A stretch of DNA of 64,000 bases from an uncultured Actinomycetes bacterium (lineage in GTDB: Bacteria > Actinomycetota > Thermoleophilia > RBG-16-64-13). The position numbers were made by a program, and so were the translations under genes. This document shows, one piece after another, positions 24,965 through 46,987 of this stretch. The notes under the pieces are model-generated. The model saw nothing but the letters and a program-made list of their open reading frames with translations. It searched no databases and was not told the DNA's origin. The stretch spans positions 704,001 through 768,000 of the forward strand of contig CAVPLM010000003.1 of NCBI GenBank assembly GCA_963706025.1, written 5' to 3'. The first letter of the stretch is position 1; every line of letters starts with the position of its first letter.

Positions 24965-26807
24965 CAAACCGTACACCGTGTATTCGGTGGAAGGCGGCAA
25001 AAAGGGAGGGTGGAAGCGCATCCTCCTATGGACGCTGGTCGGCGTGTTCGTTCTACTGCTGGCCGCAGGCGGCGGATCCTATCTGTGGTTCCGAGACCAG
25101 GTCGCGGGAGCCAACGAGCGGGTGGCGCCGGAGGTCAAGGCGGTGTTGGCGGAGAAGCCGAGCAGCACGATCGTCTCTGTGACCGTTCCCGCAGCTAAGG
25201 CTCAGCCCGAGCCTGAGGTTCCCGACTCCCCCACGGGGATGAACCTGCTGGTGCTGGGATCCGACCGCAGGGAGAGCGAAGAGGACGATTCCGGCCGTTC
25301 TGACACCATCATCCTCGTGCACGTCGATCCCGACCAGGACTATCTTTCCGTGCTTTCGTTGCCGCGGGATCTCAGGGTGAAGGTGCCCGGTCACGGGTTG
25401 GCGAAGATCAACGCCGCTTACGCGTTCGGCGGCCCGGCTCTCACCATCAGGACTGTCGAGCAAGTGACCGGCGTCGACATCAACCACTACTTGGAGATCG
25501 ACTTCGATGCCTTCAAAGACATCACCAACTCCCTCGGCGGGGTCTATGTGGACGTCGATCGGCGCTACTACAACGACAACCCTGAATGGGAACTGATCAA
25601 GCTCGCCCCCGGCTATCAACTGCTGAACGGCGACCAAGCCCTCGACTACGTGCGCTTCAGGCACGACCAGAACATGGACTTCGGTCGAATGGAACGGCAA
25701 CAGCTGTTCTTAAGCGCCGTCCGCGAGCAGGCGATGGGCTGGGATCTGCCCTTCAAACTGCCGAGGCTGGTCAGTGCTCTCTTCAAGAACGTCGACACCG
25801 ACCTGGGTGCCAACGACATCCTTAAGCTCGCCTATTGGGGCACAAGGCTGGACGGCGCCCGCATCCGGCAGATCAGTATCGTCGGAGCCACGGACACCAT
25901 CGGGGGTGCATCGTACGTCCTCGTCGACGAGGACGCCATCGTCGACGCCGTGACCGCCTTCCTTACTCCGCCCCGGGCCACGCAGGCGGCCGGCGATAGT
26001 GGGGCGGTGACAGGAACGACCGTCCCGGACGCCGGCTCGTCGTCTGCGGGCGTCGCTGAAGTCGACCTAAGCGGCATGGAAGTCGACGTACTGAACGCTA
26101 ACGGCCGGGCGGGAGAGGCCGCGGCAGCCGGCGAATGGCTGGAAAGTCTGGGAGCCACGGTCCACACGGTCGCGAACGCCGACACGTCCGTCCAAGAAGC
26201 CACGTCGGTCGAATACCCCTCAGGCCTCTCCGCGGAGGCCAGAGAGGTGGCCAAGGTGTTCGGAGCGGAGTCGGTGAGCAGGAACAGCTCGGTCGATCAC
26301 GTCACCGTCATCCTGGGAGGGGACTTCTGGCTTCCAGCGGAGTACGCTCTTCCTCCCAACCCGAGCAACATCCCCGACGCCGGTGGATGGAAGACGATCG
26401 CCCAGACGGTCCCCTTCGCCGTGCAGGCGCCGGCGTATCTCCCCCGGGGCTACAGGTTCGTGGAGCGGATGCCGCCGACCGGCGCGACTTACGATATCGA
26501 CGCGGATGGTGGCACCAAGCCCGCCTTCAAGATGTTGTACCGCCTGATAGAGGATGGAGAGTACACCGACCAATACATGGGCATCACGGAGACCACCTGG
26601 TTGGACGCCCCTGCTGCCGGGAAGGGCGTGGAGGTCAGGAATGGCGGCACCACGTTCACCATCGTGGGCACAAACGAGAAGGTGGAACGCATCTGGTGGA
26701 GGGCCGACGGCGTGCTGTATTGGGTGTCGAACACTCTGTCGCACCTCCTCAGCAAGGAGGAGCTGCTGGCGGTGGCCCAATCGATGCTGCCCATCCCTCC
26801 CGAATGA
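24957..26807 (+). CDS. LCP family protein 2 with LytR_C-like and the same C-terminal domain (probable CTG start)
   Basis: Clear paralog of LCP1; extra VDVLNANGRAGEA segment; YWVSNTLS domain. Confidence 0.92.
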   Translation: MTDKPYTVYSVEGGKKGGWKRILLWTLVGVFVLLLAAGGGSYLWFRDQVAGANERVAPEVKAVLAEKPSSTIVSVTVPAAKAQPEPEVPDSPTGMNLLVLGSDRRESEEDDSGRSDTIILVHVDPDQDYLSVLSLPRDLRVKVPGHGLAKINAAYAFGGPALTIRTVEQVTGVDINHYLEIDFDAFKDITNSLGGVYVDVDRRYYNDNPEWELIKLAPGYQLLNGDQALDYVRFRHDQNMDFGRMERQQLFLSAVREQAMGWDLPFKLPRLVSALFKNVDTDLGANDILKLAYWGTRLDGARIRQISIVGATDTIGGASYVLVDEDAIVDAVTAFLTPPRATQAAGDSGAVTGTTVPDAGSSSAGVAEVDLSGMEVDVLNANGRAGEAAAAGEWLESLGATVHTVANADTSVQEATSVEYPSGLSAEAREVAKVFGAESVSRNSSVDHVTVILGGDFWLPAEYALPPNPSNIPDAGGWKTIAQTVPFAVQAPAYLPRGYRFVERMPPTGATYDIDADGGTKPAFKMLYRLIEDGEYTDQYMGITETTWLDAPAAGKGVEVRNGGTTFTIVGTNEKVERIWWRADGVLYWVSNTLSHLLSKEELLAVAQSMLPIPPE

Positions 26808-27457
26808 GAGTGCTGGTGGGTCCTCTGGCCGAACTGCGGCTGGGGAGGCTCGCAGTGGAGGTAGCCGAACGCTTGGCCGGTCCAGGGGGCACGGTCGTCT
26901 CCTTGCGGAAGGCGGGCGTCGCCGACTTGTCTCGCCGTTTGAGTGAGGCAGAGATCGTTTTGCTGCGAGAGGCCGTCCTGGGCGACCAACCCGAGTGGTC
27001 GGCGTCGACCGGGAAGAAGGGGAAAGGTTTGGCAGGCTATGTCTGTGCCGGCTCCCGGCTCGCGGACCCGGATGGCATGCCGGCGCCCGGCGCGGCTGCA
27101 GTAATTGCAGCGACCGACCACGCCGACCTTACCTGGCGCTCACCGCTCACCGGCCCGAACGACGACCTCGTGGGCCCGCGCTTCCCCGGCATGAACGGTG
27201 TCTACGCCCCCGAAGCCGTGATAGAGAGATTGGGGGAGCGCGAGGATACGCCCGGCGAGCGCGTCCTCGGCGAGGGTATGATAGTAGTCCCCGGGATCGT
27301 TGCCGGGGTGTTCGACGACGGCCGCCTGAGCGACCACGAGAAGGAGATGGTGGACATCCTGGGATGCCCCGGGGTGAGTGTCGAGTTGGCGCCTGTGGCC
27401 ATCGTCATGGCCCATCTGGGTCTGCGGGTGGCTGCAGCCGTGGTGATGTGTCCTTAA
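26804..27457 (+). CDS. Degenerate purine nucleoside phosphorylase-like protein (217 aa)
   Basis: [30 protein letters not shown] and AHLGLRV match trimeric PNP; ATGA-coupled to LCP2; catalytic motifs missing. Confidence 0.75.
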
Positions 27458-27474
27458 GGGAAGGGAGATGCCCG

Positions 27475-45757: not shown

Positions 45758-46261
45758 ATGCCTGTAGAGCCCCTCCCAAATGAGTACCTCACCCTCACCC
45801 GGCTTCGCCGGCCGGACCACGATCTGCTCGTCACCCTGGCCGCCTATGATCTCGAGGCCTTCGGCTCGACGGGGCTGCGCGCGTACGATCTGGCGGTCGT
45901 GGCCGAGGCGGGAGCCATCTATCTGGCTTGGATCGGAGACGAGATCGTGGGAGGTTGCCAGCTGTTGAGGGTCCTGGATGAGCCGGGCTACTTCTACGTG
46001 GTCGGGTTCTACATTCGACCAGAATGGCAAGGCCGCGGTCTAGGACGGACACTCCTGGAGGCCGTGACCGAGAGATGCGTCGGCTTGGGGGCCGAGGGGC
46101 TGATACTGACGGTGGCCCCCAGCAATGTCAAAGCGTTGGGATTGTACAGAAGCGCTGCGTTCGTGGACGAGGCCTTCGTCCCCCAATTCTATGGCGAAGG
46201 GGAGGACAGACACATCCTGCGCCTGCGCTTCTCGGAGGAGGGCTTGCAGGGCGGTGTATGA
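45758..46261 (+). CDS. GNAT family N-acetyltransferase
   Basis: IRPEWQGRGLG acetyl-CoA motif, LTVAPSNVKALGLY, FYGEGEDR. Confidence 0.9.
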   Translation: MPVEPLPNEYLTLTRLRRPDHDLLVTLAAYDLEAFGSTGLRAYDLAVVAEAGAIYLAWIGDEIVGGCQLLRVLDEPGYFYVVGFYIRPEWQGRGLGRTLLEAVTERCVGLGAEGLILTVAPSNVKALGLYRSAAFVDEAFVPQFYGEGEDRHILRLRFSEEGLQGGV

Positions 46262-46291
46262 TAGAAAGCCCACCGTGAGTGCGAGGATGCC

Positions 46292-46987
46292 GTGAGAGTC
46301 GAAGAGCTGGCCAAGACCATCGATAGCGCCCTTCTGGAGGCTACCAGCACGAACACCGCCGTCGAAGCGCTGTGCCGCGACGCCATCTCGTACCATTTCG
46401 CCTCGGTGTGCGTCCTGCCCTACTGCGTTCCGGTAGCTCGGCAGCTTCTGCAGGGCTACGACGTCAAGGTCGGGACCGTTGTCTCCTTCCCCTATGGAGC
46501 CGATTCGCAACGCACCAAGATCACCGGCGCCGAGCAGGCGGTGGCCCTGGGCGCCGACGAGTTGGATGTGGTCATCAACATCCCCGCCATGCTGTCCGGC
46601 GACTTCCGTTATGTGCGGGACGAACTACGGAGTGTGGTGCGCTCGGTGCGCATGAGCAGCGTCAACACGGGCCGGGGACTGGTCTTGGTCAAGGCCAACG
46701 TGGAAGCCTACTATCTCGACGAGAAGCTGAAGCGCCTGGTCTGCAAGATCGTGGAAGACTCGGGGGCGGACTTCATCAAGACCTCCACCGGCAAGGCTCC
46801 GGGCGGCGCCACCGCCAAGGATGTGGAGTTGTTCCGAGACCTCCTGCCCGAGAGCGTGGGCGTGGATGCCTGCGGAGGCATCCGTACGGCCGAAAGCGCG
46901 GAGATAATGATCAACGCCGGCGCCGCGCGTGTCGGCACCTCGCACGCGGTCGACATCATCAAGGAGTTCTCCTCCGACAAGGACTGA
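46292..46987 (+). CDS. deoC: Deoxyribose-phosphate aldolase-like protein with atypical active site
   Basis: FASVCV, TVVSFPYG, GADELDVVIN, ADFIKTSTG, GGIRT, RVGTS. Confidence 0.88.
   Translation: MRVEELAKTIDSALLEATSTNTAVEALCRDAISYHFASVCVLPYCVPVARQLLQGYDVKVGTVVSFPYGADSQRTKITGAEQAVALGADELDVVINIPAMLSGDFRYVRDELRSVVRSVRMSSVNTGRGLVLVKANVEAYYLDEKLKRLVCKIVEDSGADFIKTSTGKAPGGATAKDVELFRDLLPESVGVDACGGIRTAESAEIMINAGAARVGTSHAVDIIKEFSSDKD

Follow-up and report, generated by a model that had tools for sequence, protein, structure and literature searches.

Closest described enzymes and their counterparts in the window

Class I deoxyribose-phosphate aldolases (DERA; TIGR00126), include E. coli b4381 and the short DERAs 8qps and 3r12. 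In the E. coli enzyme K167 forms the Schiff base, while K201 lowers the pKa of K167 and forms a proton relay with D102 (PMC6016325, in the part of the text available). The other two enzymes of concern here are the homotetrameric cytidine deaminase Cdd (TIGR01354; B. subtilis 1jtk, human 1mq0) and the trimeric purine-nucleoside phosphorylase (PNP; PunA/PNPH-PUNA-XAPA, TIGR01697; human PNP). Homologs of all three are encoded in a 64,000-nucleotide stretch of DNA (the window; G000:C3:704001-768000, G+C about 65%) from a 3.66-Mb metagenome-assembled genome (MAG) of an uncultured actinobacterium, in 30 contigs, 92% complete and 7% contaminated. The initial annotation had described these PNP-like, Cdd-like and DeoC open reading frames (ORFs) as enzymes of one pathway, each deprived of key catalytic residues and converted in parallel. 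All three are indeed open, on the plus strand and in operon positions, and alignments with E. coli DeoC, syntenic Cdds and a PNP of the same class bear out that canonical catalytic residues are missing from each; the loss extends to several key residues in the Cdd-like and PNP-like products but to a single catalytic residue, K201, in DeoC. The features that carry the argument are the following.

26804..27457, plus strand: PNP-like ORF, 217 aa; start codon (ATG) overlapping the stop of the LytR-family gene upstream, stop codon (TAA) 17 nt ahead of the ahcY GTG
45360..45749, plus strand: Cdd-like ORF, 129 aa; GTG start behind GGAGGG; 16-nt overlap with the GNAT ORF
45734..46261, plus strand: GNAT acetyltransferase; RimI-like, below cut-off
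46262..46291: GNAT-deoC spacer, 30 nt; occupied by the ~0.9-kb era gene in sister genera and in further families of this class
46292..46987, plus strand: deoC variant, 231 aa; DERA-family protein with Asp for Lys201
46697..46699, plus strand: Asn136 codon (E. coli Ile139); fixed jointly with Asp192 in the clade defined below
46778..46780, plus strand: Lys163 codon (E. coli Lys167, the Schiff-base lysine), kept
46865..46867, plus strand: Asp192 codon (E. coli DERA Lys201)

We read the three ORFs, with a probability of about 0.6, as two unrelated stories of different age: one of the PNP-like ORF, the other of the Cdd-like ORF and DeoC together with an excision of era. According to this reading, the ancestral operon ybeY-dgkA-cdd-GNAT-era-deoC-recO would have been remodelled on the stem of one clade, where era would have been cleanly excised from between GNAT and deoC and pyrimidine-nucleoside phosphorylase (pdp) lost. 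Left without its pathway, cdd would then have lost the zinc site and the catalytic Glu, persisting as a dispensable, fast-evolving remnant whose terminal helices and strands are conserved, and deoC would have gained K201D along with I139N, F/Y49L and S186P before freezing under very strong purifying selection. The era deletion between GNAT and deoC, which coincides with the Cdd-like and DeoC changes, had been overlooked in the initial annotation.

The first comparison set comprised 40 relatives and the own genome, with 24 genomes in family f1 and three in f3; a family-wide tabulation covered 58 of the 61 species genomes of the family. The clade is defined by Asp at the position of E. coli DERA Lys201 and spans eleven genera.

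An aspartate at the Lys201 position of DeoC

The deoC product scores 205.9 bits on TIGR00126 (cut-off 117.3) and aligns over its full length with class I DERAs, with which it shares the TIM-barrel motifs and the GGIR phosphate loop. When it is aligned with solved DERAs and with E. coli K-12 DeoC, Asp192 falls at E. coli Lys201 (GVKASGG to GVDACGG), whereas Lys163 (K167, the Schiff-base residue, in FIKTSTG), Asp92 (D102), Lys134 (K137) and Cys40 (C47) are kept. The protein also differs from class I DERAs by Asn for Ile139, by Leu for Tyr49 (Asn in short DERAs) and by an insertion of 8-9 residues (VRMSSVNTGRG) common to the class-wide era-linked subfamily, and its gene belongs to a ybeY-era-recO ribosome/repair operon instead of a deo operon.

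The substitution is not private to this genome. Asp192 is present in 42 of the 58 tabulated genomes and Lys192 in 16 (sister genera, 16/16), while the Lys163 equivalent is fixed in 58/58; one further genome, G020, represented by a partial contig, also has Asp at 192. K167, D102, K137, C47 and the KTSTG/GGI motifs are fixed in all 42 clade genomes, and every one of these carries Ala135 followed by Asn136 (Asp in four), as against Val or Ile, then Ile, in Lys-type genomes. Across the family, identity among DeoC orthologs is 71-97%. The same partition emerged from a wider sample of 80 species loci: the 18 loci with at least 88% identity all carry Asp and lack era, and the other 62 have Lys in 61 cases (one gap) and era within 3 kb in 50. 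In a concatenated tree of ten block proteins from 30 genomes, Asp-form genomes form one clade with a Shimodaira-Hasegawa-like approximate likelihood ratio support (SH-aLRT) of 100; the placement of G006 in this tree was unreliable (11% of columns, long branch) and was not used. That assembly error cannot account for the altered residues was upheld, because the changes are substitution-only and shared by dozens of independent assemblies.

Ten columns of DeoC are clade-diagnostic. Reciprocally fixed columns of this kind are densest in DeoC (4 of 230, against 0-1.37 per 100 in the rest of the 12 block genes), and these small counts point to a burst of change on the clade stem that was followed by tight constraint.

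The ratio of nonsynonymous to synonymous divergence (dN/dS) was estimated by the Nei-Gojobori method within the genus and to the nearest genus, at dS of 0.4-0.9 and with 1000 bootstraps. The values were 0.04-0.06 for deoC, 0.06-0.08 for secA, 0.17-0.21 for the GNAT gene and 0.33 for rsmE. DeoC thus ranks among the most constrained genes of the block, and the Cdd-like gene is fast-evolving and sporadically lost. Relative to SecA, the divergence of DeoC amounts to 0.62 inside the clade, 0.83 in sister genera and ~1.0 (1.04) in outgroups. Neutral drift is excluded for the PNP-like, Cdd-like and DeoC genes alike, since dN/dS lies below 1 for each and none of the 1000 bootstraps reached 1.

One of the two possibilities put forward in the initial annotation, an abandoned pathway whose three genes are all drifting towards pseudogenes, is hardly credible on these numbers. 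It could draw on the failure to find pdp and canonical cdd in clade genomes, on the absence of the Cdd-like gene from some of them and on split matches in some MAGs. The confidence intervals of dN/dS nevertheless exclude 1 for all three genes, DeoC is among the most conserved products of the block, the PNP-like form is maintained across two families and DeoB-PunA is kept; the split matches look like assembly errors, because frame breaks also hit housekeeping genes of the same low-quality MAGs. As an observation on assembly quality, the MAGs G019, G003, G021 and G010 contain many frame breaks in housekeeping genes of the block (dgkA, ybeY, the 7TM-HD gene, era and deoC).

The Lys201-to-Asp protein is a natural DERA variant held at dN/dS of about 0.05 across eleven genera. 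Our literature search found no work joining deoxyribose-phosphate aldolase with Lys201 or with the term pseudoenzyme, and the accessible portions of PMC4164750 and of the TgDPA literature yielded nothing on catalytic inactivity, for which reason a DERA-like pseudoenzyme of Toxoplasma was not enlisted as evidence. Either DERA chemistry runs here on a different acid/base set, a property that enzyme engineering could exploit, or an aldolase of the TIM-barrel fold has been recruited for a new and essential function.

Apparent loss of era and proposed remodelling of the operon

Outside the clade, in sister genera as well as in further families of the class, the locus reads 7TM-HD, ybeY, dgkA, cdd, GNAT, era, deoC, recO. 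Besides the genes listed above, the window retains these members of it:

44098..44580, plus strand: ybeY, conserved operon neighbour; PF02130, 86.5 bits
44608..45330, plus strand: dgkA, a prokaryotic diacylglycerol kinase domain fused to a PAP2 phosphatase domain; adjoins the Cdd-like ORF upstream
46929..47894, plus strand: recO; longest ORF, true start may be later

Era is normally an indispensable ribosome-assembly gene. Between GNAT and deoC it is present in 16/16 Lys192 genomes and in 0/42 Asp192 genomes. A genome-wide search with an Era hidden Markov model gave no full-length match in any of the 43 genomes that represent the eleven clade genera; in the eight other genera 16 of 18 genomes had one, and the two misses were a 51%-complete bin and a genome with a fragmented era. 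Several of the Era-less genomes are 96-100% complete, and one has a 3.56-Mb contig. When the own genome was searched by tblastn with a sister-genus Era, only Der-like GTPase domains were recovered; a KH_2 search retrieved Era and S3 in the sister genus (G008) but S3 and only weak other matches in four clade genomes. The 3' end of 16S rRNA, where Era binds (helix 45 and the GGAUCACCUCCUUUCU tail), is identical in the Era-less G000, G003 and G007 and the Era-bearing G008.

That a clade with genomes of normal size should apparently have lost Era was a by-product of the analysis and is its most surprising result. A review names, in the portion available, only extremely genome-reduced groups (Dependentiae, Chlamydia and most of the candidate phyla radiation, CPR) as Era-less (PMC10582724). 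Like the clade, those groups have no recognisable Era; they are described in the same portion as having simplified ribosomes and extreme genome reduction (PMC10582724), whereas clade genomes measure 1.8-3.7 Mb. Should closed genomes confirm it, the loss would run counter to the idea that independence from Era is confined to bacteria with extremely reduced genomes. The finding is relevant, too, to a question that the accessible part of the review lists as unsettled, namely what the linkage of era, cdd and recO signifies (PMC10582724).

Both the changes in the Cdd-like ORF and those in DeoC fall on the same stem branch as the era excision. It is tempting to suppose that the clade dispensed with Era and rebuilt DeoC (K201D/I139N) for a new, strongly selected activity tied to Era-less life, for example in 30S maturation or in handling a nucleotide-derived metabolite; we consider this improbable, though if true it would make the long-puzzling era-cdd-(deoC)-recO synteny experimentally approachable. 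A simpler version, in which K201D compensates for the loss of Era, was weakened by a genome of family f6 (G039): no Era was found there and yet Lys201 is kept, which speaks against a necessary link between the two changes. In that genome, where Era is not detectable, GNAT abuts deoC, and an unrelated 120-aa ORF (L125 3936-4298) sits where cdd is found elsewhere.

The Cdd-like ORF and the nucleoside pathway

Canonical cdd occupies the same genomic slot in sister genera, which makes the Cdd-like ORF its positional ortholog. The sister-genus product passes TIGR01354 (117.7 bits, cut-off 113.65), whereas the Cdd-like protein has no Pfam match at E<=10, and its best NCBIfam match is a cytidine deaminase model, NF009076, at E=0.057 and 13.4 bits against a cut-off of 216. 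Compared with homotetrameric Cdd it has the same slot, predicted fold and length but lacks the zinc-ligand cysteines, the catalytic Glu and the NxE motif, and is not recognised by Pfam. Alignment with the syntenic canonical Cdds places Ser58, Ser93 and Thr96 at the three zinc-ligand Cys positions and Ala60 at the catalytic Glu. Inactive deaminase folds are known elsewhere, as in the C-terminal pseudo-domain of the dimeric E. coli Cdd and the ADAT3/Tad3 subunit.

The degenerate form is found in 33 of the 42 Asp192 genomes, with CAE in 0/33 and PCxxC kept in 6/33; no Cdd-like gene was found in the other nine (one locus truncated), and canonical cdd is present in 7/16 Lys192 genomes. Identity is 72-77% within the genus and 30-48% beyond. 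The dN/dS of the Cdd-like gene is 0.18-0.34, and its LSPxLGRLIDAAK and KQxGRWV motifs persist across genera, at distances where synonymous sites are saturated. A pseudogene reading based on a split tblastn match in G003 was rejected, the same MAG having frame breaks in housekeeping genes. Co-folding of GNAT (alignment A4) with the Cdd-like protein (A1) returned a score of 0.00, classed as 'no answer', which speaks neither for nor against binding.

Among f1 genomes, pdp (TIGR02644) was found in five, all Lys-type, four of them being the canonical-cdd genomes of the set and the fifth G021; among the 15 clade genomes searched it was found in none. The own genome holds no other DeoC-family protein, no Cdd and no TIGR01354 match. 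Phosphopentomutase (deoB), by contrast with pdp, is present in all 24 f1 genomes, and the own-genome DeoB is a 685-aa fusion (G000:C5:383548-387234, ORF 1444-3501, minus strand) in which a DeoB part (448 bits) is joined to a canonical-motif PNP domain; deoB-carrying ORFs of similar length occur in most family genomes. MTAP, futalosine hydrolase and an LsrF-like aldolase are encoded in the own genome as well. Since neither pdp nor canonical cdd was found in clade genomes, the pyrimidine branch is, to judge by gene content, gone from the clade, and a route from purine nucleosides to pentose phosphates appears to remain. In our reading, the Cdd-like protein would be a relic of this abandoned branch, lost together with pdp. 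K201D does not simply follow the loss of the branch, because five Lys-type genomes likewise without cdd and pdp (G005, G012, G014, G018, G022) keep Lys192; all five keep era too.

Catalytic status of the DeoC variant

Read from its residues, phylogenetic distribution, synteny and selection, the DeoC variant is rather probably still a Schiff-base aldolase, its proton relay rebuilt around Asp192/Asn136 and its substrate possibly altered. This is suggested by the retention of DeoB-PunA, the source of deoxyribose-5-phosphate, and by a DeoC that still has its phosphate-binding motifs and the equivalents of Lys167 (Schiff base), Asp102 and Lys137.

The alternative is that DeoC(D192) is no longer an enzyme, that it is kept for a catalysis-independent role of the era/recO-linked DeoC lineage throughout the class, and that K201D marks a released catalytic constraint. 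The case for it comes from four f2 genomes (G025, G030, G035, G040). At the era-deoC-recO position, three of them encode DeoC orthologs that have lost both lysines, K167V with K201V in G035 and G040 (loci L123 5029-5691 and L126) and K167M with K201S in G025 (L117 4989-5666); these are exactly the f2 genomes in which no deoB was found, while G030 has deoB and both lysines. Comparison of the lysine-less genes of G035 and G040 indicates purifying selection (dN/dS 0.20, confidence interval 0.11-0.34), and because such orthologs stay under selection, DeoC could have a role independent of catalysis. K167 is moreover replaced by Q, E or V in 8 of 80 loci of other lineages (L208, L216, L220, L224, L228, L230, L233, L234). 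The clade itself presents another picture: its DeoC has changed only at K201 among the catalytic residues, with the remainder fixed in 42/42 genomes; deoB-punA is kept in all 24 f1 genomes; and the protein is held more tightly than its Lys-type relatives (dN/dS 0.05; ratio to SecA 0.62 against 0.83), unlike the relaxed f2 forms at 0.20. We therefore regard a non-catalytic DeoC(D192) as unlikely, although not as negligible.

Several observations weigh against our two-part reading or against its aldolase component. The K201/D102 relay of E. coli DERA is described as critical for efficient catalysis in the available part of PMC6016325. The f2 orthologs suggest that the era-linked DeoC lineage can survive without catalysis, which argues against a surviving aldolase, and the G035 protein, though it lacks both lysines, reaches 161.5 bits on TIGR00126, so that the profile score is uninformative on activity. 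All clade-specific events fall on one branch and amount to a single observation, from whose coincidence a coupling is not demonstrable. For the Cdd-like protein, the structural model has a predicted local distance difference test score (pLDDT) of 91.3 and its top ten Foldseek matches are tetrameric cytidine deaminases (TM 0.73-0.78), but canonical Cdds were part of the alignment behind the model and bias it in favour of that fold; its dN/dS is alike in the termini (0.23) and the middle (0.24), singling out no genus-level conserved surface. Finally, most of the genomes compared are MAGs.

An older PNP-like family upstream of ahcY

The PNP-like ORF lies 18 kb from the cdd-deoC locus, in front of two genes whose scores bear out the statement of the initial annotation that neighbouring enzymes keep intact motifs:

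27475..28734, plus strand: ahcY, adenosylhomocysteinase, intact; TIGR00936, 638 bits, scored on the 27457-28734 translation
28716..29897, plus strand: mtnA, S-methyl-5-thioribose-1-phosphate isomerase, intact; TIGR00512, 421.6 bits, cut-off 279

The likely start of ahcY is the GTG at 27475, which is preceded by the ribosome-binding site GGGAAGGGAG.

The only model that the PNP-like product passes is that of the superfamily, PF01048 (28.9 bits, cut-off 25.1); on TIGR01697 it reaches 31.7 bits against a cut-off of 197.1. With trimeric PNPs it has in common the central DHxNL...GPNDxxxGPRFP block and the last beta-alpha-beta units, but it is ~55 residues shorter and lacks the phosphate-binding Ser loop, the Arg/His, FET and MS motifs and the C-terminal Asn segment. 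In alignment with a canonical 270-aa PNP of the same class, GSGLG, GRxHLYEG, GPxFETPAE and GMSTVPE are absent and the product stops short of the VTNMAAG segment; none of the PNP-like rows aligned in this way has the motifs that bind phosphate, ribose and base. One conserved loop is kept, DHxNLTWRSPLxGPNDDxLGPRFP, and we take it to lie at the subunit interface of trimeric PNPs. The structural model (pLDDT 84.5, with low-confidence loops) finds trimeric PNPs as its best Foldseek matches at probability 1.0, but at a TMq of only 0.55-0.61 and a root-mean-square deviation of 4-9 A. Non-enzymatic PNP_UDP_1 proteins exist, for example the bark storage proteins of plants.

This short form is present in all 24 f1 genomes, including ones with normal Cdd and Lys201 DeoC, and in 3/3 f3 genomes, where it is equally degenerate; in every case it stands directly ahead of ahcY. 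The f4 matches are ordinary 270-aa PNPs, and in f6 the slot is filled by an ORF that, on visual inspection of its sequence, looks SIS-domain-like. Identity is 67-70% within the genus and 40-50% beyond. A database search returned 170 clusters; in all 120 listed, lengths were 187-256 aa, and most names were 'hypothetical' or missing. The overall dN/dS of 0.26-0.39 divides into 0.20-0.28 for conserved or structured blocks and 0.47-0.71 for two loops. A pseudogene reading from split tblastn matches in G008, G010, G019 and G021 was rejected, since frame breaks in the same MAGs hit dgkA, ybeY, recO and the 7TM-HD gene; an apparent split in G001 proved to be one frame on re-inspection.

Because it is shared by f1 and f3 and coexists with normal Cdd and Lys201 DeoC, the PNP-like protein appears to be an old, lineage-restricted short pseudo-PNP family under moderate purifying selection upstream of ahcY. 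We infer a non-catalytic role, perhaps as an oligomer partner or ligand binder in the S-adenosylhomocysteine/methylthioadenosine branch.

The candidate of the initial annotation, parallel conversion as one system, survives only in part: the Cdd-like and DeoC changes do belong to one monophyletic clade, while the PNP-like form is older and lies in a separate operon, the own genome keeps a canonical-motif PNP domain fused to DeoB as well as an MTAP, and the selective regimes of the Cdd-like gene and deoC are opposite. A repurposing of all three, with GNAT, into one sensor, adaptor or new-chemistry module is accordingly very unlikely. It would be in keeping with the placement of both the Cdd-like and the DeoC changes on one stem branch, with the separation of the two genes by GNAT alone after the era deletion and with the overlap of the Cdd-like and GNAT ORFs. 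Against this stand the PNP-like form, which predates the clade, coexists with normal Cdd and Lys201 DeoC and sits in the distant ahcY-mtnA operon; the failure to find the Cdd-like gene in 9/42 clade genomes, compared with DeoC(D192) in 42/42; and selective regimes that differ five-fold. Under the two-part reading, a single family would display several pseudoenzyme fates: survival as a relic in the Cdd-like case, long persistence as a paralog in the PNP-like case and, in DeoC, independent forms without the lysines.

Gene order, RNA-library matches and neighbouring genes

The plus strand between 23 and 48 kb begins with two LytR-family genes, the PNP-like ORF, ahcY, mtnA and a sugar-1-phosphate nucleotidyltransferase gene, continues with comF, hpf, secA, prfB, ftsE, ftsX, an S41 protease gene, rsmE, HIT, yqeY, phoH and the 7TM-HD gene, and ends with ybeY, dgkA-PAP2, Cdd-like, GNAT, deoC and recO. 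Plausible ribosome-binding sites precede ahcY, the Cdd-like ORF and deoC.

At least half of the sampled words of the window were found in seven DNA sequencing runs, and 5-7% in three RNA-library runs. Two stretches of the window, 44831-44981 (dgkA) and 46300-46471 (deoC), are matched by identical RNA-library contigs, and one such contig that is 92% alike spans 45629-45887, from the 3' end of the Cdd-like ORF into the start of GNAT. These contigs are weak evidence of expression, as such libraries can contain DNA; they cover only short pieces and leave most of the length of the Cdd-like, GNAT and deoC genes without an RNA contig, which allows no conclusion.

The 7TM-HD protein (42437-44101) aligns with the version of other genera (L099, L102, L104, L106, L108, L110) in two pieces ~630 nt apart; either the proteins of the other genera have ~210 extra residues after residue 60 or the genus of the window lost them. 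The nucleotidyltransferase at 29894-30895, whose best named match is mannose-1-phosphate guanylyltransferase, below its cut-off, has a left-handed beta-helix tail (a weak eIF2B-epsilon LbH match) and comes after the eIF2B-related mtnA.

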